A DNA stretch of 64,000 bases from Somniosus microcephalus (taxonomy: Eukaryota), in assembly GCA_052327205.1 (NCBI GenBank), contig CM126207.1:218178001-218242000 (forward strand), read 5' to 3'. The notes under the pieces were generated by a model that worked only from the letters and a program-made list of their open reading frames with translations, was not told the DNA's origin and did no database searches. A program made the translations under genes and the position numbers. Every line of letters starts with the position of its first letter. Positions within the stretch are counted from its first letter, which is position 1. Positions 5,483-42,243 of the stretch are shown in pieces.

Positions 5483-5793
5483 TGTGGTAAACCACTTTTA
5501 TCGTTCACTATGGTTATCACTGTTATATCGTTACACTATGGTTATCACTGTTTACACTGTTGTATCACTACACGAGGTCGCCTCTTGTCACGCTGTTATA
5601 CCTGGGCTGACCACTGCTGACTCCGCCCATGGCTCCACCTACTTGCCCAGGTATAAAGGTGGTCGACTAGCTGGTATTCCTCCTTGTTGGATCCGATCAC
5701 CCACGAGGGTGGGCTCTGTTATTTAGCCAATAAAAACCTATAGTTACTGTCTTAACTCGTCGCTTTTCATTGGATGAATTGATAGGTATATCA
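5483..5793 (+). repeat. 5' LTR of Gypsy A1 (311 bp)
   Basis: TGTGGTAAACCAC...GGTATATCA; TATAAA at 5652; AATAAA at 5729; near identical to 9818-10139. Confidence 0.95.
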
Positions 5794-5815
5794 ATTTTAT
5801 TCGCTAAATTTTGAA

Positions 5816-8800
5816 ATGTCTTTAACAGAGCAGCCAAACGACCAGTCAGACGCCCAGCTACAACAGCCACAGCAGCCGGCCTGGCTGCGAGCCCTCCGAC
5901 CGCCGTACCTGGATCTAAACCCACAGGCAGCAAACTCAGCCCTCGACTTCAAACACTGGCTGAGCTGTTTCGAATCCTACCTGGGAGAATCCGGCATGCC
6001 TCAGAGATCCAAACTAAGAGTTCTGACCGCCCAAGTGAGCCCTAAAGTATTTGCACTCATCCAGGACCTTACTACATACGAGGCCGCCCTCAACCTGCTG
6101 AAAGAGCAGTACCGGAGCCCGGTAAATTCTATGTATGCCAGACATCTCCTAAGATCCCGCCCGCAACAGCCAGGAGAGTCTGTAGATGAATTTTTACGGG
6201 CGCTACAAACACTCGGCAGGGACTGTGACTTTAAAGCTGTAACGGCTGCAGAAAATACTGAAGAGAATATCCGCGATGCCTTCGTGAAAGGCCTTCGGTC
6301 CGACTACTCATGGCAAAGACTGCTCGAATCAAAGGACCTCGACCTGAACACAGCTGCAGCCCTCGCTCGCTCTCTGGAAGTGGCCCATCGGGACCTCGCG
6401 GCGTATTCCAGGTACTGTGCTGCGTGACCCTGGGACTCGGGCCCGACCCCGACCGCAATACCCCTCGCACCGCCGCCCCTGGGACCTACCTCAGCGTCGG
6501 CGTCCCGGACCCGATCGGGACCGCCACCCCCGGTACCGGCTGCGACATCGGAGCCCCGCGATCGGGCCGCCGGCTGCTTTTTCTGTGGCCAGGCGAAACA
6601 CCCGAGGGCGTGCTGCCCTGCAAGAAACGCGACCTGCTCCGACTGCCACAAGAAAGGCCACTTCGCGAAGGCCTGCAGGGGGAAAGCCACAGACGCCAGC
6701 AGTGCCTCATGCGAGTTGTGGGGGCGGCCATCTTTCATCAAGGCCACAGATGCCAGTATCCCCTCGTGAGAGTCGTGGGGGCGGCCATCTTTGATCAAGG
6801 CCACCGACACCGGCAGTGCCTCATGTGAGTTGTGGGGGCGGCCATCTTCTCCGCCATTTTATGCAACGTCGTGGGCACCGCCATTTTGTTCACCACACTC
6901 GACCGCCACCTTGTCTCCAGACCCGACCACAGCCTCACCCGCAGACTACAGCAGCTCGCTCAGCCATACACTAGCCTCCGTCACACTGGACCAAGCTCGC
7001 CCACATCACCTGTCCAAGTCCATGATGGACATCAAAGTAAACGGCCACGCCACGACCTGCCTGTTCGACAGCGGAAGCACGGAGAGTTTCATCCATCCAG
7101 ACACGGTGAGCCACTACTCCCTCACTGTCCAGCCAACGCGCAACCGGATCTCGATGGCGTCGAGGTCCCATTCAACAGACATCAGCGGATACTGTGTTGT
7201 GACCCTGTCGGTTAGGGGCACGGAGTATAAAAATTTTAAACTTCTCGTCCTGCCCCAACTCTGCGCTGCCGTCCTACTAGGGCTGGATTTCCAATCCCAC
7301 CTTCAAAGTGTCACTTTGGCATACGGTGGACCCCTCCCCCCACTCACAGTCGACAACCAACAGCCTTTAAACCGCCCACCGCGTACCACCTGCGGCCTAT
7401 CCACCCTCAGGGTTCCGCCCCCCTCCCTGTTCGCCAACCTCACCCGTGACTGTAAACCCGTCGCTACCAAGAGCAGGCGGTACAGCGCCGTGGACAGAGC
7501 TTTTATTAGCTCTGAGGTGCAGCGTCTCCTGAAAGAGGGCATCATCGAGAGGAGCAACAGCCCCTGGCGTGCCCAGGTCGTAGTCGTTAAGACCGGCGAT
7601 AAAAACCGCCTAGTCATCGACTACAGCCAAACCATAAACTGGTACACCCAGCTGGACGCATACCCACTTCCCCGCATATCTGATATGGTCAATCAGATTG
7701 CACAGTACCGAGTATTCTCTACCATCGACCTTAAGTCGGCCTACCACCAACTCCCTATCCGCCCCGAGGACCGCCAGTATACCGCCTTCGAGGCGAATGG
7801 CCGCCTCTACCACTTCCTTAGGGTTCCCTTCGGCGTCACCAACGGGGTTTCGGACTTCCAAAGGGAGATGGACCAGATGGTTGACCAGAACGGGCTGCAA
7901 GCCACGTTCCCCTATCTAGATAACGTCACCATCTGCGGCCGCGACCGGCAGGACCATGATGTTAATCTGGAGAGATTCCTCCGTACGGCCCAACGGCTGA
8001 ACCTCACCTACAATAAGGAGAAATGTGTGTTTAACACCTCGCGCCTTGCCATCCTCGGCTGCGTAGTAGAGAACGGAGTCATCGGCCCCGACCCCGAAAG
8101 AATGCGCCCCCTCATGGAGCTTCCCCTCCCCCACTGTCCAAAGGCGCTGAAGAGGACCCTGGGGCTCTTCGCCTACTATGCCCAATGGGTGCCGAATTAT
8201 GCGGACAAAGCCAGACCCCTCATGAAGTCCGCCTCCTTCCCCCTGACGGCAGAAGCGTGCGCAGCCTTCTCCCTCATTAAGGGAGACATTGCTAAGGCCA
8301 CAATGCACGCGGTGGATGAGTCTATCCCTTTCCAAGTGGAGAGCGATGCATCCGACTTCGCCCTAGCCGCAACCCTTAACCAGGAGGGGAGACCGGTGGC
8401 CTTCTTCTCAAGGACCCTCCAGGGCCCTGAGATCCGACACTCCTCGGTCGAGAAGGAGGCCCAGGCGATCATGGAGGCTGTACGACGCTGGAGGCATTAC
8501 CTGGCAGGCAAACGATTTACCCTTCTCACCGACCAGCGTTCGGTCGCTTTTATGTTTAATAACAAGCTGAGGGGCAAAATCAAGAATGACAAGATCTTGA
8601 GGTGGAGAATCGAGCTCTCCACCTATGATTATGAGATCTTGTACCGGCCTGGTAAACTGAACGAACCCCCAGATGCTCTATCACGGAGTACATGCGCCAA
8701 CGTGCAAATTGATAGACTGCAGACCCTCCACAACGACCTCTGCCACCCCGGAGTCACCAGACTTTACCACTTCATTAAGGCCCGCAACCTGCCCTACTCC

Positions 8801-9772
8801 ATCGAGGAGGTCAGGACCATGACCAGGAACTGCCAAACCTGTGCCGAATGCAAACCGCATTTCTTTAGGCCGGACAGAGCAAGCCTGATCAAGGCCACCC
8901 GCCCCTTCGAGCGCTTGAGCATCGATTTTAAGGGACCCCTCCCGTCCTCTGACCGTAATGTGTACTTCCTCAACATCATTGACGAGTACTCCCGTTTCCC
9001 CTTTGCCTTCCCCTGCCCAGACATGACCAGTACCACGGTCATCAAATGCCTGAACGACCTCTTCGCCGTGTTCGGGTTCCCGAACTATATACATAGCGAC
9101 CGGGGCTCCTCCTTCATGAGCGAGGAACTTCGCCAGTTCCTACTAGCGAGAGGTATTGCTGCAAGCAGGACCACCAGCTACAACCCCCGAGGGAACGGCC
9201 AGGTGGAAAGAGAGAACGCGACTGTCTGGAAGGCCGTTCTCTTAGCCTTAAAGTCTAAGGGCCTCCCGACCTCTCGCTGGCAGGAAGTCCTCCCGGCAGC
9301 GCTGCATTCCATCCGGTCACTGCTTTGCACTGCCATTAACGCCACACCCCATGAACGAATGTTTGCTTTCCCCAGGAAGTCGACTACGGGAACCACGCTA
9401 CCAACTTGGCTGACCTCTCCGGGGCCCGTCTTGCTGCGAAAGCACGCGGGGGCCCATAAAACGGACCCCCTGGTCGAGAGGGTGGATCTCCTGCACGCCA
9501 ACCCCCAGTACGCCTATGTGGCATACCCAGACGGGCGGGAGGACACAGTCTCCTTACGAGACCTCGCACCCTCGGGCATCCCTGAGACACCACCGTTACC
9601 CCCCACCACCCCCCCAAATCCAGCCCAGGTAGACGGCATGCCGGAACCCCACGAGCCTTCGCCGACCACGCAGACACCAGCATTAACATCGGATACTGCA
9701 TCACCGCCGCCGCTGCTGCGACGATCGGAAAGGCTTACGAGGCCTCCGGACAGACTGACATACCCGAACTGA
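5816..9772 (+). pseudogene. Single-frame gag-pol with two in-frame stops in gag; the pol portion 6791-9772 is open
   Basis: 5816 and 6791 are in the same frame. TGA at 6425 and 6767 correspond to sense codons in copy A2. Two CCHC knuckles, protease LFDSGS, RT (IDLKSAYHQ, YLDN), RNase H (ESDASD), integrase HHCC and DDE (IDFKG, SDRG, QVER). Confidence 0.93.
6683..6850 (+). repeat. About three 57-bp (19-aa) tandem units in the gag-protease linker
   Basis: Units of the type aaggccacagatgccag...gtgggggcggccatctttgatc (KATDAS..SCE.WGRPS); the same array is present in copy A2 at about 37270-37436. Confidence 0.85.
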
Positions 9773-9817
9773 TAGTACACTTCACCCCGCCGGACTCAAA
9801 TGTAAACAAGGGGTGAA

Positions 9818-10139
9818 TGTGGTAAACCACTTTTATCGTTCACTATCGTTACACTATGGTTATCACTGTTATATCGTTACACTATGGTTATCACTGTTTA
9901 CACTGTTGTATCACTACACGAGGTCACCTCTTGTCACGCTGTTATACCTGGGCTGACCACTGCTGACTCCGCCCATGGCTCCACCTACTTGCCCAGGTAT
10001 AAAGGTGGTCGACTGGCTGGTATTCCTCCTTGTTGGATCCGATCACCCACGAGGGTGGGCTCTGTTATTTAGCCAATAAAAACCTATAGTTACTGTCTTA
10101 ACTCGTCGCTTTTCATTGGATGAATTGATAGGTATATCA
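9818..10139 (+). repeat. 3' LTR of Gypsy A1 (322 bp)
   Basis: Differs from the 5' LTR by 2 substitutions and an extra 11 bp in the U3 repeat array. Confidence 0.95.
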
Positions 10140-30791: not shown

Positions 30792-31113
30792 TGATATACC
30801 TATCAATTCATCCAATGAAAAGCGACGAGTTAAGAAAGTAACTATAGGTTTTTATTGGCTAAATAACAGAGCCCACCCTCGTGGGTGATCGGATCCAACA
30901 AGGAGGAATACCAGCCAGTCGACCACCTTTATACCTGGGCAAGTAGGCGGAGCTATGGGCGGAGTCAGCAGTGGTCAGCCCAGGTATAACAGCGTGGCAA
31001 GAGGCGACCTCGTGTAGTGATACAACAGTGTAAACAGTGATAACCATAGAGTAACGATATAACAGTGATAACCATAGTGTAACGGTAGTGAACGATAAAA
31101 GTGGTTTACCACA
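30792..31113 (-). repeat. 3' LTR of Gypsy A2 (322 bp)
   Basis: Identical to 38322-38615 except for one extra 28-bp U3 unit. Confidence 0.95.
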
Positions 31114-31155
31114 TTCACCCCTTGTTTAGATTTGAGTCCGGCGGGGTGAAGTGTA

Positions 31156-34100
31156 CTACCAGTTCGAGTATGTCAGTCTGTCCGGAGGCCTCGTAAGTCT
31201 TTCTGATCGGCGCAGCAGCGGCGGCGCTGTTGCAGTCTCCGGCGTTAATGCTGGTGTCTGCGTGGTTGACGAAGGCTCGTGGGGTTCCGGCATGCCGTCT
31301 ACCTGGGCTGGATTTGGGGGGGTGGTGGGGGGTAACGGCGGTGTCTCAGGGGTGCCCGAGGGTGCAAGGTCTCGTAAGGAGACTGTGTCCTCCCGCCCGT
31401 CTGGGTATGCCACGTAGGCGTACTGGGGGTTGGCGTGCAGGAGGACCACCCTCTCGACCAGGGGGTCCGTTTTATGGGCCCTCACATGCTTTCGCAGTAA
31501 GACGGGCCCCGGAGAAGTCAGCCAAGTTGGCAGCGTGGTTCCCGTAGTCGATTTCCTGGGGAAAACAAACATTCGTTCATGGGGGGTGGCGTTAATGGCA
31601 GTGCAAAGCAGTGACCGGATGGAATGCAGCGCTGCCGGGAGGACTTCCTGCCAGCGAGAGGTTGGGAGGCCCTTAGACTTTAAGGCTAAAAGAACGGCCT
31701 TCCAGACAGTCGCGTTCTCTCTTTCCACCTTCCACCATAGGAATAGGAAGATAGAACAGATGAATGCGTGGCTAAAGGGATGGTGCAGGGGGGAGGGCTT
31801 TAGTTTCCTGGATCACTGGGTCTGCTTCTGGGAAAGGTGGGACTTGTACAAGTCGGACGGTTTACACCTGAACCAGAGGGGAACCAATATCCTTGCGGGG
31901 AGGTTTGCTAGCACTGCTGGGGGGGGGTTTAAACTAACTTGGCAGGGGGATGGGGTACAGAGTGGAGCTATAGTAGGGGGTGATTTACAGCCAAATACAG
32001 AGGGAAAAACAAGTCAGCTGGGAAGGCAGAGCAAATATGTGAAGGCAAAAGAGAATATGGCAGGGCTGGAAGGCATTTATTTTAATGCAAGGAGTCTTGC
32101 AAATAAGGTGGATGAACTGAAGTTGTTGTTGAACACATGGGAGTACGATATTGTTGCTATCACGGAGACATGGTTGAGGGAGGGTCAGGACTGGCAGCTC
32201 AATATTCCGTCAGGCGAGACAGAGGGGGGTGTAAAAGGGGAGGAGGTGTTGCAATATTAATTAAGGAGTCAATTACTGCTGTAAGGAGGGATGATATATT
32301 AGCGGGTTCCTCTAATGAGGCCATATGGGTAGAACTTAAAAACAAAAAGGGGGCAAGCACTTTGCTGGGAGTGTACTATAGGCCCCCAAACAGTCAGGGG
32401 GAGATAGAGGAACAGATATGTAGGCAAATCTCAGAAAAGTGCGAAAATAATAGGGTAATAATAGTGGGGGATTTCAACTTCCCCAATATAAATTGGGATA
32501 GTCAGAGTGTGAAAGGCTTAGAGGGTGCAAAATTCTTAAAGTGCATCCAGGAGAGCTTTTTGAGCCAACATGTAGAAAGTCCTACAAGAGAGGGGGCGGT
32601 ACTGGACCTAATTCTGGGGAATGTAGCCGGGCAAGTGGTGGAAGTGTCAGTAGGAGAGCATTTTGGCGACAGTGACCATAATTCGGTGAGATTTAAGGTG
32701 GTCATGGAAAAAGACAAAGACGGCCCGGAAATAAGGGTTCTAAATTGGGGGAAGGCCGATTTTAATATGATAAGGCAGGATCTGGCCAAAGTGGACTGGG
32801 AGCAGCAACTTATAGGAAAATCCACATCAAAACAGTGGGAGACTTTCAGAAGGGAAATAGAGAGAGTACAACGCCAACATGTTCCTGTAAAGGTCAAGGG
32901 TGGGACCAACAAGCAAAGGGAACCTTGGATGACAAGGGATATACAAAAATGCATTAGAAATAAAAGGGGGGCTTTTGGCAGTTACAAAAGACTAAAGACG
33001 GAAGAAGCCCTAGAGGAGTATAAAAAGTGCAGGGGCATACTTAAAAAAGAAATTAGGAGGGCGAGGAGGGGCCATGAAATAACACTGGCGAGCAAAATAA
33101 AGGAAAATCCTAAGATGTTTTATAAGTATATTAAGGGCAAGAGGATAACCAGGGAAAGGGTAGGGCCCATTAGGGACCAAAGAGGCAATCGGTGTGGAGA
33201 GCCAGATGATGTAGGCGGGGTTTTAAATGAATTTTTTGCATCTGTGTTCACTATGGAGAAAGACGATGCAGACATAGAAATCGGGCAAGGGGACTGTGAC
33301 ATACTTGAACATATTAGCATCGAGAGGGAGGAGGTGCTAGCGGTTTTAGCAGGCCAAAAAGTGGATAAATCCCCAGGCCCGGACGAGATGTATCCCAGGC
33401 TGCTGTGGGAGGCAAACGAGGAGATTGCAGGGGCTCTGACACAAATTTTCAGAACCTCTCTGGCCACAGGGGATGTACCAGAGGACTGGAGAACAGCTAA
33501 CGTAGTACCATTATTCAAGAAGGGTAGCAGGGATAAACCAGGGAATTACAGGCCAGTGAGCCTAACATCTGTGGTAGGGAAATTATTGGAAAAAATTCTG
33601 AGGGACAAAATTAGTCTCCACTTGGAGAGGCAAGGATTAATCGGGGATAGTCAGCATGGCTTTGTCAAGGGTAAATCATGTCTGACAAATCTGATTGAAT
33701 TTTTCGAGGGGGTGACTAGGGGGGTGGATGAGGGAAATGCTGTGGATGTGGTTTACATGGACTTCAGTAAAGCTTTTGACAAAGTCCCGCATAGGAGACT
33801 GGTCAAGAAGGTAAGAGCCCATGGGATCTAGGGTGCCTTGGCGCGTTGGATCCTAAACTGGCTGAGTGGCAGGAGGCAGAGGGTGATGGTCGAAGGTTGC
33901 TTTTGTGACTGGAAGCCTGTGTCCAGTGGGGTACCTCAGGGATCGGTGCTGGGTCCCTTGTTGTTTGTGATCTACATAAATGATCTGGATGAGAATGTAA
34001 AAGGTATGATCAGTAAGTTCGCAGATGACACGAAAATTGGTGGGGTGGTAAATTGCGAGGAGGAAAGCCTCAGGCTACAGGACGATATAAACGGGTTGGT

Positions 34101-37100
34101 CAGATGGGCGGAAAAGTGGCAAATGGAATTTAACCCTGAAAAGTGCGAGGTGATTCATTTTGGACGGACAAATAAGGCAAGGGAATACACAATGAGTGGT
34201 AGGACCCGAGGAAGTACAGAGGGTCAGAGGGACCTTGGTGTACATGTACATAGATCCCTGAAGGCAGCGGAACAGGTAGAGAAGGTGGTTAAAAAGGCAT
34301 ATGGGATACTTGCCTTCATTAGCCGAGGCATAGAATATAAGAGCAGGGAGGTTATGATGGAGCTGTACAAAACGCTGGTGAGGCCACAGCTGGAGTACTG
34401 TGTGCAGTTCTGGTCGCCTCACTATAGGAAGGATGTGATTGCTTTGGAGAGGGTGCAGAGAAGATTCACCAGGATGTTACCTGGGATGGAGCGCCTCCGC
34501 TATGAAGAGAGGCTGGACAGGCTGGGGTTGTTTTCCTTGGAGCAAAGAAGGCTGAGGGGGGACCTGATTGAGGTGTACAAAATGATGAGGGGCATAGATA
34601 GGGTAGATAAAAAGAGGAACTTTTCCCCTTAGTAGGGGGGTCAATAACAAGGGGGCATAGATTCAGGGTAAGGGGCAGGAGATTTAGAGGGGATTTGAGG
34701 AGGAACTTTTTCACCCAGAGGGTGGTTGGAATGTGGAACTCACTGCCTGAAAGGGTGGTAGAGGCAGGAACCCTCACAACATTCAAGAAGCATTTGGATG
34801 AGCACTTGAAATGCCATTGCATACAAGGCTATGGACCAAATGCTGGAAAATGGGATTAGACTGGACAGGGATGGATGGGCGGCGCAGACACGATGGGCCG
34901 AAGGGCCTCTTTCTGTGCTGTAAAACTCTATGACTCTATGACTATGGGTTGTCGCTGGTGGTCCTGCTTGCAGCGATACCTCTCGCTAATAGGAACTGGC
35001 GAAGTTCCTCGCTCATGAAGGAGGAGCCCCGGTCGCTATGTATATAGTTCGGGAACCCGAACAAGGCGAAGAGGTCGTTCAGGCATTTGATGACCGTGGT
35101 GCTGGTCATGTCTGGGCAGGGGAAGGCAAAGGGGAAACGGGAGTACTCATCAATGATGTTGAGGAAGTACACATTACGGTCAGAGGACGGGAGGGGCCCC
35201 TTAAAATCGATGCTCAAGCGCTCGAAGGGGCGGGTGGCCTTGATCAGGCTTGCTCTGTCCGGCCTAAAGAAATGCGGTTTGCATTCGGCACAGGTTTGGC
35301 AGTTCCTGGTCATGGTCCTGACCTCCTCGATGGAGTAGGGCAGGTTGCGGGCCTTAATGAAGTGGTAAAGTCTGGTGACCCCGGGGTGGCAGAGGTCGTT
35401 GTGGAGGGTCTGCAGTCTATCAGTTTGCACGTTGGCGCATGTACTTCGTGATAGAGCATCTGGGGGTTCGTTCAGTTTACCAGGCCAGTACAAGATATCA
35501 TAATCATAGGTGGAGAGCTCGATTCTCCACCTCAAGATCTTGTCGTTCTTGATTTTGCCCCTCAGCTTGTTATTAAACATAAAAGCGACCGAACGCTGGT
35601 CGGTGAGGAGGGTAAATCGTTTGCCTGCCAGGTAATGCCTCCAGCGTCGTACAGCCTCCATGATCGCCTGGGCCTCCTTCTCGACCGAAGAGTGTCGGAT
35701 CTCAGGGCCCTGGAGGGTCCTTGAGAAGAAGGCCACCGGTCTCCCCTCCTGGTTAAGGGTTGCGGCTAGGGCGAAGTCGGATGCATCGCTCTCCACTTGG
35801 AAAGGGATAGACTCATCCACCGCGTGCATTGTGGCCTTAGCAATGTCTCCCTTAATGAGGGAGAAGGCTGCGCACGCTTCTGCCGTCAGGAGGAAGGAGG
35901 TGGACTTCATGAGGGGTCTGGCTTTGTCCGCATAATTTGGCACCCATTGGGCATAGTAGGCGAAGAGCCCCAGGGTTCTCTTCAGCGCCTTTGGACAGTG
36001 GGGGAGGGGAAGCTCCATGAGGGGGCGCATTCTTTCGGGGTCGGGGCCGATGACTCCGTTCTCTACTACGCAGCCGAGGATGGCAAGGCGCGAGGTGTTA
36101 AACACACATTTCTCCTTATTGTAGGTGAGGTTCAGCCGTTGGGCCGTACGGAGGAATGTTTCCAGATTAACATCGTGGTCCTGCCGGTCGCGGCCGCAGA
36201 TGGTGACGTTATCTAGATAGGGGAACGTGGCGTGCAGCCCGTTCTGGTCAACCATCCGGTCCATCTCCCTTTAGAAGACCGAAACCCCGTTGGTGACGCC
36301 GAAGGGAACCCTAAGGAAGTGGTAGAGGCGGCCGTTCGCCTCGAAGGCTGTATACTGGCGGTCCTCAGGGCGGATAGGGAGTTGGTGATAGGCCGACTTA
36401 AGGTCGATGGTGGAGAATACCCGGTACTGCGCAATCTGATTGACCATATCAGATATGCGGGGAAGGGGGTATGCGTCCAGCTGGGTGTACCGGTTTATGG
36501 TTTGGCTGTAGTCGATGACTAGGCGGTTTTTATCGCCGGTCTTAACGACTACGACCTGGGCACGCCAGGGGCTGTTGCTCCTCTCGATGATGCCCTCCTT
36601 CAGGAGACGCTGCACCTCACAGCTAATAAAAGCTCTGTCCCCGGCGCTGTACCGCCTGCTCTTGGTGGCGACGGGTTTACAGTCGCGGGTGAGGTTAGCG
36701 AACAGGGAGGGTGGCGGGACCTTGAGGGTGGATAGGCCGCAGGTGGTATGCGGTGTGCGGTTTAAAGGCTGCTGGTTGTCGACTGTGAGTGGGGGGAGGG
36801 GTCCACCGTATGCCAAAGTGACACTTTGCAGGTGGGATTGGAAGTCCAGCCCTAGTAGGACGGCAGCGCAGAGCTGGGGCAGGACGAGGAGTTTAAAATT
36901 TTTATACTCCGTGCCCCTAACCGACAGGGTCACAATACAGTAGCCGCTGATGTCTGTAGAATGGGACCTCGATGCCATCGAGATCCGGTTGCGCGTTGGC
37001 CGGACAGTGAGGGAGTAGTGGCTCACCGTGTCTGGATGTATGAAACTCTCCGTGCTTCCGCTGTCGAACAGGCAGGTCGTGGCGTGGCCGTTTACTTTGA

Positions 37101-38298
37101 TGTCCATCATGGACTTGGACAGGTGATGTGGGCGAGCTTGGTCCAGTGTGACGGAGGCTAGTGTATGGCTGAGCGAGCTGCTGTAGTCTGCGGGTGAGGC
37201 GGTGGTCGGGTCTGGCGACAAGGTGGCGGTCGACTGTGGTGGACAAAATGTCGGCGCCCACGAGGTTGAATAAGATGGCTGCCCCCACAACTCACATGAG
37301 GCATTGCTGGTGTCGGTTGCCTTGATCAAAGATGGCCGCCCCCACGACTCACACGAGGGGATACTGGCATCTGTGGCCTGGATGAAAGATGGCCGCCCCC
37401 ACAATTCGCATGAGGCACTGCTGGCGTCTGTGGCTCTCCCCCTGCAGGCCTTCGCGAAGTGGCCTTTCTTCTGGCAATGGGAGCAAGTCGCGTTTCTCGC
37501 AGGGCAGCGTGTCCTCGGGTGTTTCACCTGGCCACAGAAGAAGCAGCCGGCGGCCCGATCGCGGGGGTCCGATGTTGCAGCCGGTACCGGGGGTGGCGGT
37601 CCCGATCGGTTCTGGGACGCCGACGCTGAGGTAAGTCCCGGAGGCGGCGTTGCGAGGGGTATTGCGGCCGGGGTCGGGCCGGAGTCCCAGGGTCGCGCAG
37701 TACAGTACCTGGAATACGCCTCGAGGTCCCGATGGGCCACTTCCAGGGAGCGGGCGAGGGCTGCAGCTGTGTTCAGGTCGAGGTCCTTTGATTCCAGCAG
37801 TCTTTGCCGTGAGTAGTCGGACCGAAGGCCTTTCACGAAGGCATCGCGGATATTCTCTTCAGTATTTTCTGCAGCCGTTACCGCTTTAAAGTCACAGTCC
37901 CTGCCGAGTGTTTGTAGCGCCCGTAAAAATTCATCTACAGACTCTCCTGGCTGTTGCGGGCGGGATCTTAGGAGGTGTCTGGCATACATAGAATTTACCG
38001 GGCTCCGGTACTGCTGTTTCAGCAGGTTGATGGCGGCCTCGTATGTAGTAAGGTCCTGTATGAGTGCGAATACTTTCGGGCTCACTTGGGCGGTCAGCAC
38101 TCTTAGTTTGGATCTCTGAGGCACGCCGGATTCTCCCAGATAGGATTCGAAACAGCTCAGCCAGTGTTTGAAGTCGAGGGCTGAGTTTGCTGCCTGTGGG
38201 TTTAGATCCAGGTACGGCGGTCGGAGGGCTCGCAGCCAGGCCGGCTGCTGTGGCTGTTGTAGCTGGGCGTCTGACTAGTCTGACGGTTCGTTAGACAT
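31156..38298 (-). pseudogene. Disrupted gag-pol of Gypsy A2
   Basis: ATG at 38298; TAG at codon 8 (38275-38277); TAA at 36271-36273 in RT; CR1 insertion at 31731-34945 in the integrase; pieces seen as ORFs 36271-38124, 34942-36264 and 31156-31728. Confidence 0.92.
31731..34945 (+). mobile_element. CR1 LINE (end of esterase ORF1 plus ORF2) nested in Gypsy A2
   Basis: ORF1 end has DGLHLN; ORF2 has YFNARS, ITETWL, VGDFN, NYRPVSLTS, KFADD, with a frameshift near 32210 and TAG at 33829; tail (ACTCTATG)n. Confidence 0.95.
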
Positions 38299-38321
38299 TT
38301 TTAAAATTTAGCCAATAAAAT

Positions 38322-38615
38322 TGATATACCTATCAATTCATCCAATGAAAAGCGACGAGTTAAGAAAGTAACTATAGGTTTTTATTGGCTAAATAACAGA
38401 GCCCACCCTCGTGGGTGATCGGATCCAACAAGGAGGAATACCAGCCAGTCGACCACCTTTATACCTGGGCAAGTAGGCGGAGCTATGGGCGGAGTCAGCA
38501 GTGGTCAGCCCAGGTATAACAGCGTGGCAAGAGGCGACCTCGTGTAGTGATACAACAGTGTAAACAGTGATAACCATAGTGTAACGGTAGTGAACGATAA
38601 AAGTGGTTTACCACA
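38322..38615 (-). repeat. 5' LTR of Gypsy A2 (294 bp)
   Basis: TG...CA termini; no substitutions seen relative to the 3' LTR. Confidence 0.95.
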
Positions 38616-38664
38616 ATCTTTGCATGGTACACAATGGTATTGATGCCAAAGATCATAACCATAG

Positions 38665-41600
38665 TGATGCGCTATCAATCACTCAAAAGACTGAGGTTAA
38701 GCGAGTAACTAACAGGCTTTTATTAACAAGAGAATGAAGGTGTGCCTCGAGTGGTCGACCAGTCCAGAATACAGAGGGACTGTGGAGCAGTCACCTTTAT
38801 ACCTGGACTCATGGGAGGAGTCAGCCGAGGCATGTACAGACATGTACACAGTGGAATACAAACAGTGGTTTACCACATTCACCCCTTGTTTAAAAATGAG
38901 TCCGGCGGGGTGAAGTGTATTAAAAGTTTGTGTATTGGAGTCTCTCCGGAGGTCTTCTCTGCCGCTGTGATCGACGTGGCGACGGCAGGGGTAGTGAAGC
39001 TTCCGGCGTCGAGTCCCGCGTAGGCTGGGGCACTGGTGTGTAGTCCTCGTGGGTGTTGAGCGGGTCGCGGGGCCCAGGCGTGCCGTCTGCTGGGGTTGGA
39101 TATTGGATCGTGGGGGGGTGTGGTAGTGGGTCGTGGGTTACTGGGGCCCCCGAGGGTGCGAGGTCTCGTATGGAGACTGTGTCCTCCCGCCCGTCCGGGT
39201 ACGCAATGTAAGCATACTGGGGTTTGGCGTGGAGGAGGTCGACCCTCTCGGCCAGGGGGTCCGTTTTATGGGTCCTCATGTGTCTTCTCAGTAGGACCGG
39301 CCCTGGGGACGTCAGCCATGGCGGTAGCGATGTCCCCGATGTGGACTTCCTTGGGAAGACAAACATTTTCTCATGAGGGGTGGCGTTAGTGGCAGTGCAG
39401 AGCAGTGACCGAATAGAGTGGAGCGCATCGGGGAGCACATCCTGCCAGCGGGAGGTCGGAAGGCCCCTAGACTTTAAGGCTAGCAGGGCGGCCTTCCATA
39501 CTGTCGCATTCTCTCTTTCCACCTGTCCGTTCCCCCGGGGATTGTAACTGGTGGTCCTGCTTGTGGCAATACCCCTAGCGAGCAGGTACTGGCGGAGTTT
39601 GTCGCTCATAAACGATGAGCCCCGGTCGCTATGGATATAGCTGGGGAAACCGAACAGGGTGAAGAGGTCATTCAGACATTTAATGACCGTGGCACTGGTC
39701 ATGTCCGGGCAGGGGATGGCGAACGGGAAACGGGAGTACTCATCAATAATGTTGAGGAAGTACACATTGCGGTCGGAGGAGGGGAGAGGCCCTTTAAAAT
39801 CAATGCTCAGGCGCTCGAAGGGGCGAGTGGCTTTTATCAGGTGAGCCCTGTCTGGTCTATAAAAGTGCGGTTTGCACTCAGCGCAGACTTGGCAGTTCCT
39901 GGTCATGGTCCTGACCTCCTCAATGGAGTAAGGCAGGTTGCGGGCCTTGATGAAGTGGAAGAACCTGGTGACCCCCGGGTGGCAGAGGTCATTGTGGAGG
40001 GCCCGCAGTCTATCGATCTGCGCGCTGGCGCAGGTGCCACGCAATAGAGCATCCGGGGTTTCATTGAGCTTACCGGGCCGGTACAAGATCTCGTAATTGT
40101 AGGTGGAAAGTTCGATTCTCCACCTCAAGATCTTGTCGTTTTTGATTTTGCCCCTCTGCTTGTTGTTAAACATAAAAGCAACTGAACGCTGGTCAGTGAG
40201 CAGGGTAAATCGTTTTCCGGCCAGGTAGTGCCTCCAATGACGCACAGCCTCCACAATAGCCTGGGCCTCCTTCTCAACAGCGGAGTGTCTGGTCTCCGGG
40301 CCCCGGAGGGTTCGTGAAAAGAAGGCCACGGGTCTCCCCGCCTGATTAAGGGTAGCGGCCAGGGCAAAGTCGGACGCGTCACTTTCCACCTGGAAGGGGA
40401 TGGATTCGTCCACTGCGTGCATGGTGGCTTTGGCAATGTCTTCCTTGATACGGTGGAAGGCTAAGCGGGCCTCTGCCGTCAAGGGAAAAGAGGTGGACTT
40501 GATCAGCGGACGGGCCTTGTCCGCATAGTAAGGGACCCACTGGGCGTAATAGGAGAAAAACCCTAGGCACCTCTTCAGGGCCTTGAGGCAGTGGGGCAGT
40601 GGGAGTTCCATAAGGGGACGCATCCGGTCGGGGTCGGGACTGATGACTCCGTGTTCCACAACACAGCCAAGGATGGCGAGGCGGGTTGTGCAGAATATGC
40701 ACTTCTCCTTGTTATACGTCAGGTTCAAGAGTTGGGCGGTGCAGAGGAATTTTTCGAGGTTTGCGTCATGGTCGCAGATGGTCACATTGTCCAGATATGG
40801 GAAAGTGGCCTGCAACGCATTTTGACCTACCATCCGGTCCATCTCCCTTTGGAAGACGGAGCCCCCGTTGGTGACGCCAAAGGGAACCCTAAGGAAGTGA
40901 TAGAGGCGGCCGTTTGCCTCGAAGGCAGTATACTGGCGGTCCTCAGGGCGGATAGGGAGCTGGTGGTACGCTGATTTCAGGTCAATGGTCGAGAAGACGC
41001 GGTACTGCGCGATCTGGTTGACCATATCGGCTATACGGGGGAGTGGGTAAGCGTCCAGCAGGGTGTAGCGGCCTGCTGCATCCCGGCTGGCGTCCAAGAT
41101 GGCGGCATCCATGACCCCCATGTGGCTGGAGGCGTCCAAAATGGCTGCTGTTCCGGTGGTTCGCACATGGCTGGGGAGGCCCAAGATGGCGGCCCGCACG
41201 GCCCACACGCGGCGCTGCTGGGGTTCGGGGTGGCTTTGGCCCTGCAGACGCTGGTGTAGTGTCCCTTCTTCCCGCAGCCCGAGCAGATCGCATTTTTCGC
41301 CGGGCAGCGCGCTCTGGGGTGTTTGGCCTGGCCACAGAAGTAACATTTCTGGCCTTGGGACACTGCTGCGGTAGTTGGGCCGTTGCTGGGATGTGGCTGG
41401 GGTGGGACGGCGCTATGAGACGGTCCTACCGTGTCCCAGGCTGTCGTTCCCCGCGGCGTCCACGGTGCAGAGGAGTAGGCATCCATGCCCCGGTAGGCTG
41501 CGTCCAATGATAGTGTGAGTTCAGAGGCCTTGTTGAGGTCGAGGTCACTCTGCTCCAACAGTCGCTGTCGGGTGTAATTGGACCTGTGGCCCGCTACAAA

Positions 41601-42243
41601 AGCGTCCCAGATAAGTTCCTCTGTGTACACGGCGGCCTTTACATCCTTACAACCACAGGCCCGGCCGAGCACAGAGAGTGCCTGAAGGTATTCCTCGGTC
41701 GATTCCCCAGGTTGTTGTTTACGACTCCCCAGGAGGTGCCTGGCGTACACCTCGTTCACTGGGCGTGTGTACTGGTCCTTGAGGAGCTTGATAGCAGCCG
41801 TGTACGAGGTCGCGTCCTGGATGACCGAGTACGCTCGGTGGTTCACTTTGGAGGTCAGGACATCCAGTTTGTCCTCATCCGATTTGACCGTTGCAGCGGA
41901 GGCGATCAGGAATTTTTCAAAGCACCTAAGCCAGTGAGCAAACTTGGTGGATGCATCCGCCTCCCAATGGTCTAAGTCTAGGCATGCTGGTGTGAGGATC
42001 TTCTCCATTATAAAAAATCTTGTTAATAAAATTGATGCGCTATCAATCACTCAAAAGACTGAGGTTAAGCGAGTAACTAACAGGCTTTTATTAACGAGAA
42101 TGAAGGTGTGCCTCGAGTGGTCGACCAGTCCAGAATACAGAGGGACTGTGGAGCAGTCACCTTTATACCTGGACTCGTGGGAGGAGTCAGCCGAGGCATG
42201 TACAGACATGTACACAGTGGAATACAAACAGTGGTTTACCACA
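38665..42243 (-). mobile_element. Gypsy family B (related to A), internally deleted
   Basis: LTRs 38665-38877 (213 bp) and 42033-42243 (211 bp); TSD CATAG at 38660-38664 and 42244-42248; gag from 42008 with two CCHC knuckles; RT-RH-IN within ORF 38920-41346. Confidence 0.95.
38920..42008 (-). pseudogene. gag-pol of Gypsy B lacking protease and the RT N-terminus
   Basis: The gag tail joins RYTLLDAYP out of frame near 41070; no D(S/T)G protease motif; a 5-aa deletion after YLDNVTIC relative to family A. Confidence 0.88.

Follow-up and report, generated by a model that had tools for sequence, protein, structure and literature searches.

The window analysed here is a 64,000-nucleotide stretch of contig CM126207.1 of Somniosus microcephalus. 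It contains three Ty3/Gypsy elements, A1, A2 and B, each of which encodes the peptide FPYLDNVTIC in its reverse transcriptase (RT); the YLDN residues occupy 12 nt in each. The features are as follows, in window coordinates.

5483..10139, forward strand: element A1, with LTRs at 5483-5793 and 9818-10139 and target duplication TCCAC
5721..5735, forward strand: A1 LTR segment ending AATAAAA, complementary to the family primer-binding site (PBS); predicted self-primer
5794..5810, forward strand: A1 non-TGG PBS, with one mismatch to the LTR segment (other copies pair over 15 nt)
6770..9772, forward strand: A1 open pol fragment with protease, RT, RNase H and integrase (Pfam)
7616..7639, forward strand: A1 fingers sequence IDYSQTIN, a clade signature common to YLDN and YLDD members
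7727..7729, forward strand: A1 RT motif A Asp320 in STIDLKSAY, invariant across homologues
7913..7924, forward strand: A1 RT motif C YLDN, TATCTAGATAAC, aligned to the YLDD of Ty3
7919-7921 and 7922-7924, forward strand: A1 Asp384 and Asn385, numbered from the 6770-9772 frame
30792..38615, reverse strand: element A2, of the same family as A1, with LTRs at 38322-38615 and 30792-31113 and target duplication ATCTT
36208..36219, reverse strand: A2 YLDN, with codons identical to those of A1
38665..42243, reverse strand: element B, with LTRs at 42033-42243 and 38665-38877 and target duplication CATAG
40786..40797, reverse strand: B YLDN, TATCTGGACAAT, with synonymous codons that differ from those of A1 and A2

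The TG...CA LTR pair, polypurine tract and 5-bp target-site duplication typical of Ty3/Gypsy elements are all present, and Pfam domains follow gag in the Ty3/Gypsy order protease-RT-RNase H-integrase. LTR pairs are approximately 99% identical; this near-identity had been predicted and is confirmed. The A1 pair differs by two mismatches and one 11-bp indel. The family A U3 region (5483-5570) carries short tandem repeats of varying copy number, and the indel corresponds to one 11-bp unit. A1 and A2 are 95.7% identical and belong to one family, whereas B shares 80% nucleotide identity with family A; the window thus holds two independent families, not three. None of the three elements is complete, contrary to the original prediction. 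The Gag-Pol frame of A1 is cut by in-frame stops at 6425 and 6767, and the reading frame at 6791-9772 that had been taken as the element's ORF is a fragment made by a stop; in intact relatives, Gag and Pol are encoded in a single frame of 1305-1352 aa. In A2, RT is interrupted by a stop at 36273, and a CR1-type LINE at approximately 31731-34945 has entered the integrase region. B has lost its protease and the start of RT. The LINE in A2 has a canonical FADD motif, and the remaining LINE fragments of the window have FADD or YADD, with one YTDD. A2 and B lie head to tail, separated by 49 bp (38616-38664). Three YLDN copies in 64 kb compare with approximately 0.3 expected from the genome-wide count.

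Textbooks give YxDD as the RT signature, and in annotation YxDN counts as the sign of a dead enzyme. Among solved structures the best sequence match to the RT is that of Ty3 (E 1.5e-45). The canonical active site has three Asp residues, one in motif A and two in YxDD; in the window elements the third is Asn. The motif had been claimed for all three elements and is present in all of them, although the positions given for A2 and B were one base off. The differing synonymous codons of B are likewise borne out. Upstream, IDYSQTIN corresponds to the canonical DYRxLN, with another residue in place of Arg and one extra residue.

None of the window copies is intact, which would be compatible with decay, sequencing error or hypermutation in a few copies. 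The rest of the genome gives a different picture. The exact pattern YLDN[VI]T[VI]CG has 33,598 matches genome-wide on many synonymous backgrounds and the reversed control pattern has none, which excludes chance; the corresponding YLDD pattern has 3,466 matches and its reversed control has one. Identity to the query is 97-100% among the 150 genome matches listed, and all 30 of the top loci examined encode YLDN. At least seven YLDN groups are found among 40 copies sampled in genome order, with RT identities of 67-82% where they can be aligned. Asn is also found in other genomes: when a 50%-cluster search is added, DN occurs in 147 of the 264 homologues that cover the motif, including proteins from named rays, catsharks, corals and anemones. 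Decay, error or hypermutation has next to no chance of being correct; it is refuted by the 30 YLDN loci, the genome count and the purifying selection described below. The original prediction that YLDN is not one-off decay therefore stands, and the motif is a fixed family state.

A tighter pattern for the YLDN families, FPYLD-VTICG, has 23,064 copies with Asn and 37 with Asp. Control changes that also require a single A-to-G step occur in these families at 30 copies (Asn to Ser) and 95 copies (first Asp to Gly). The 37 Asp copies are on several synonymous backgrounds and, judged from these counts, the rare Asp copies look like post-insertion mutants and show no sign of being a lineage of higher fitness. 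The idea that family A has a concealed YLDD master was rejected: none is found in 30 loci, and Asp is at background genome-wide. The first-Asp-to-Gly class is approximately three times as large as either of the two other A-to-G classes and is uneven between strands (61 versus 34), perhaps due to sequence context.

Intact members of these families are YLDN. In each of twenty copies picked for long frames, YLDN lies within one Gag-Pol frame of 1305-1352 aa; 19 of them have two CCHC knuckles, and most retain RNase H and integrase motifs. LTR pairs could be scored in 13 of the 20 and have 0-5 mismatches; two of these pairs are identical. In the 40-copy genome-order sample, 12 copies have an ORF of at least 1200 aa, and 16 have an LTR pair with target duplication; six of these 16 have no LTR mismatch, and the median LTR divergence is 0.65%. 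Pooled pN/pS in family A is 0.11 (190 pairs from 20 long-ORF copies), and between A and B dN is 0.07-0.08 against a dS of 1.3-1.4. RT dN/dS in YLDN families ranges from 0.05 to 0.11, in a set of 20 copies selected for long ORFs and high similarity to the query. The original prediction would have failed if intact members carried YLDD and YLDN copies showed no selection; the intact copies are YLDN, and they are under purifying selection of this strength. By their sequence, copies outside the window have the unbroken Gag-Pol, RNase H and integrase motifs and identical LTRs of an autonomous, recently active family.

The YLDD matches belong elsewhere. All 30 loci examined of the 3,466 are from another family of the same clade, with approximately 61% RT-RNase H identity to the YLDN families, and among the 100 YLDD matches listed only one is of the YLDN-family type. 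The proposed comparison of YLDN and YLDD in intact homologues thus gave a clear result: YLDN families are fixed for Asn, and YLDD is almost entirely a separate sister family in the samples. The sister family has approximately 3,400 copies, LTRs of approximately 227-277 bp and a single ORF of approximately 1250 aa; ORFs of at least 1235 aa are found in four of 20 sampled copies, a sample partly picked for long frames. Its median LTR divergence is 1.3%, and none of 15 LTR pairs is identical. Asn variants number three, compared with 14 for the control change. One sister copy, at C1:13609932-13612957, adjoins or is interrupted by a family A YLDN copy.

This sister is the only candidate helper found in the genome. 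If the YLDN polymerase were weak or dead, its elements could be copied in trans by the sister RT, for example in mixed particles; the sister is of the same clade, numerous, has long ORFs and shares the PBS type, and D-to-N changes block Ty1 and Ty3 transposition (available text of PMC2148107 and PMC5371799). However, YLDN copies outnumber YLDD copies approximately ten to one and look younger (LTR divergence 0.65% versus 1.3%; identical pairs 6/16 versus 0/15), and the LTRs of the two families have no detectable similarity. A passenger RT would be expected to decay, yet dN/dS is low and both other Asp residues are invariant. Rare YLDD copies have arisen inside YLDN families without amplification. 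Copying by a helper is thus quite improbable. The original prediction offered either an active RT with two catalytic carboxylates or a YLDD helper; the sequence comparisons strongly favour the first, and the second is disfavoured even though a YLDD sister exists.

The Asn codon is a single A-to-G step from Asp, and Asn deamidation is a common protein reaction; the working enzyme could in principle be YLDD after A-to-I editing of the RNA or deamidation of the protein. The motif is covered by 440 reads in one RNA run and by 813 in another, possibly from related species and not from that of the window. These reads carry Asn, and one run has a strand bias fitting sense transcripts. No A-to-G change at 7922, in the Asn codon, reaches 1% in either set of reads, while neighbouring synonymous sites vary widely. 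Edited RNA would also be copied back into DNA as Asp, yet Asp copies are at background. The residue after the motif is mostly Val, Ile or Leu, which is a slow context for deamidation. Conversion of Asn to Asp is very improbable on these grounds.

The two states are widely distributed in relatives. The best 120 of 1,615 homologues include 95 with YxDN, 24 with YxDD and one with neither, and DN is found in 54 of 80 metagenome loci; these shares, like that of the wider homologue set, are biased towards the query. The nearest named homologues are from rays and catsharks, and the named DN hosts are rays, catsharks, Oculina, Actinostola, Pocillopora, Porites and Acropora. A Trichuris protein has YLDD. 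Two YLDN Gypsy polyproteins (P0011 and P0033) are labelled as bacterial MAG proteins (Rhizobiales bacterium; bacterium) and are probably animal DNA in metagenome bins. From 269 proteins, five that did not cover the motif were left out, and 76 were not long enough to be placed in the RT-RNase H tree. This tree has 189 rows and was built with the fourth motif column masked; 158 of its rows form one clade (support 0.99). At the fourth position the clade has 105 N, 51 D and two other residues; D is found in all 31 outgroup rows and in most of the basal ingroup branches. The minimum number of changes on the tree is 16, compared with a mean of 43 and a minimum of 36 for shuffled labels. A 52-row subset requires 13 changes, with strongly supported mixed pairs and with Asp rows nested in Asn groups. 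A single YxDN clade, and hence a single origin of Asn, is rejected (p-AU 1.7e-130). In none of ten 90% clusters do the members that cover the motif differ in state.

The other two Asp residues do not vary. The motif A Asp is present in 120 of 120 best homologues, and the motif A Asp and first motif C Asp are both present in 105/105 DN and 51/51 DD proteins. The fourth motif C position, as read from these alignments, is constrained to Asx and toggles at least 13-16 times in a wide animal Gypsy clade. The clade is distinguished from outgroups by SPWRAQ, DYSQTIN and motif B TNGV. These are seen in the window at 7562-7639 and 7838-7849, with a one-residue insertion in DYSQTIN and TNGV in place of the usual NAP; Asp and Asn members are alike in this. 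Thr two residues past the motif is found in 102/105 DN and 34/51 DD proteins. No residue in RT or RNase H tracks the switch after correction for ancestry, a test of low power (10 independent pairs, median p = 1 in all tests listed). A single compensating residue was rejected as a candidate; among the tests listed, the top columns in Fisher tests failed in the independent pairs.

The clade is also characterised by its priming site. The PBS is complementary to a segment of the element's own LTR that ends AATAAA. Among copies in which an LTR pair and target duplication are present, 15 of 16 YLDN and 14 of 15 YLDD copies have such complementarity over 10-17 nt, and nine metagenome loci have it over 12-22 nt. 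The segment stops at AATAAA, approximately 36-59 nt short of the LTR end, and paired (compensatory) changes in PBS and LTR are found between subfamilies and also across hosts. Judged from this pairing, self-priming is likely to be clade-wide. The fold of the 111-nt LTR/PBS junction is no better than shuffled sequences (z 0.02), although an 8-bp hairpin across the LTR end is seen. In family A this hairpin (window 5775-5795) reaches from the 5' LTR end into the first bases of the PBS; no such arms occur in the YLDD sister junction printed. It had been suggested that YLDN goes together with non-tRNA priming. This association is not upheld, as the self-complementary PBS is found in 14 of the 15 YLDD sister copies, a comparison in which the YLDD side is represented by one family because YLDD metagenome loci have no usable LTR/PBS junction. 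An Asn tied to non-tRNA priming is rejected accordingly. The available text of PMC3601003 refers to chromoviruses that prime from a 5' hairpin.

The families are probably autonomous Ty3/Gypsy elements in which YLDN is fixed and inherited, and in which the RT copies the element with only two catalytic Asp residues; we hold this with good confidence on the basis of sequence comparisons. The motif A Asp and the first motif C Asp would hold the two metals. The fourth position would need just an Asx-shaped side chain, for handling of the primer end, metal A or pyrophosphate, and Asn would take the place of Asp structurally or in hydrogen bonding. A structure model predicts a normal RT-RNase H fold (pLDDT 93) in which CaMV RT is the first and Ty3 RT the second match of a fold search; the model has no metals and is therefore silent on catalysis.

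Laboratory mutants at this position are known from yeast. According to the accessible sections of PMC5371799, Ty3 RT binds its metals through D151 and D213; the D214N enzyme still polymerises, with reduced processivity, but the mutation is lethal for transposition. The corresponding text of PMC2148107 states that polymerases require two or three acidic residues, and that Ty1 D211N retains polymerase activity in vitro with a kpol 223-fold lower, a preference for Mn2+ and tighter binding of pyrophosphate; transposition is abolished, and RNase H suppressors rescue it to 5-10%. The original prediction drew its D-to-N background from Ty1 and HIV-1 and missed the closer test case, Ty3 D214N (PMC5371799, as far as available). 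Ty1 and Ty3 transposition needs the third Asp, and their polymerisation does not. In the present clade, the clade-wide background and not one compensating residue would lift the block that D211N in Ty1 and D214N in Ty3 impose on transposition. Since no single residue follows the switch (at low power), tolerance is placed in that background, for which the remodelled fingers, motif B and self-priming are candidates. Asp and Asn would then be near-equivalent, and each family would fix one. That compensation for the Asp/Asn exchange is not accounted for by any residue that tracks it in the alignments counts against the two-Asp reading.

Asn might instead be favoured, by adjusting the speed of the polymerase or its release of pyrophosphate to RNase H cleavage in the course of self-priming. 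It has arisen or been kept in many lineages and dominates this genome, and the Ty1 D211N suppressors map to RNase H (PMC2148107, available text). Asn variants are rare in the YLDD sister (3 versus 14), so each background may prefer its own state. However, YLDD families with the same PBS design are successful too, no co-varying residue is found in RT or RNase H, and ordinary post-insertion mutation is compatible with the low counts on both sides. An advantage of Asn is rather unlikely; it is a variant of the two-Asp explanation and does not exclude it.

Under the two-Asp explanation, a wider proposal can be made tentatively, although it is somewhat doubtful: that the third RT Asp has been freed in a large animal Gypsy clade, with Asn and Asp interchangeable by family, and that the RT architecture of the clade together with self-priming removes the translocation or pyrophosphate-release defect of the Ty1 and Ty3 mutants. 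If so, Asn versions are able to dominate a vertebrate genome, and the Asn and Asp states may be tuned alternatives in speed, fidelity or metal preference. YLDN is the more numerous and younger branch of the clade in this genome. Natural Asn enzymes and their Asp sisters, which include close neighbours on the tree and a pair within this genome, make the role of the third Asp testable with unaltered proteins.

Natural YxDN motifs have a precedent, which was missed in the original prediction and which tempers the surprise. YVDN occurs in nematode BEL/Pao elements (Belpaoviridae), namely Cer7-Cer12 of C. elegans and Atlas of hookworm (PMC554778 and PMC9094657, in the parts available). Enzyme activity of these elements is left open in the available text of PMC554778 (2005), and that of PMC9094657 (2022) gives YVDN just as a listed feature. 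No report of YLDN or YxDN for Gypsy elements was found in the literature searched, which lay outside Repbase, GyDB and subscription journals; the papers matching the motif dealt with BEL/Pao YVDN and, in one case, with methylation in poplar. Cigr-1 is a metazoan Ty3/Gypsy clade reported in tunicate, mollusc and annelid genomes (PMC6238403 and PMC8556966, available text, in which YLDN and priming do not come up). As in the elements described here, the second motif C Asp has become Asn in intact BEL/Pao LTR elements; however, those belong to another superfamily and probably acquired it independently. BEL/Pao elements are defined by a BEL/Pao RT and a triple Cys-His Gag, whereas the present elements have Gypsy Pfam domains, two CCHC knuckles and a Ty3-like RT. 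YVDN is a group trait there, whereas here switching goes both ways in one clade and Asp and Asn families share a genome.

Two-carboxylate catalysis is also known among right-hand polymerases, in T7 RNA polymerase and in Mononegavirales polymerases with a GDN motif C. Two-metal catalysis by two Asp residues is the likeness; these are distant enzymes, and the comparison is an analogy only. Tf1-type Ty3/Gypsy elements have a PBS that pairs with the element's own sequence and not with a tRNA end. The likeness lies in pairing with the element's own LTR sequence; in the present clade, however, the pairing segment ends at AATAAA, no chromodomain is found by Pfam, and the priming design is independent of the Asp/Asn state. 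Ty3 D214N and Ty1 D211N affect the same position according to the Ty3 RT alignment, and in these RTs the other two Asp residues are essential. In yeast the change is lethal for transposition, whereas here it is fixed in families with tens of thousands of copies.
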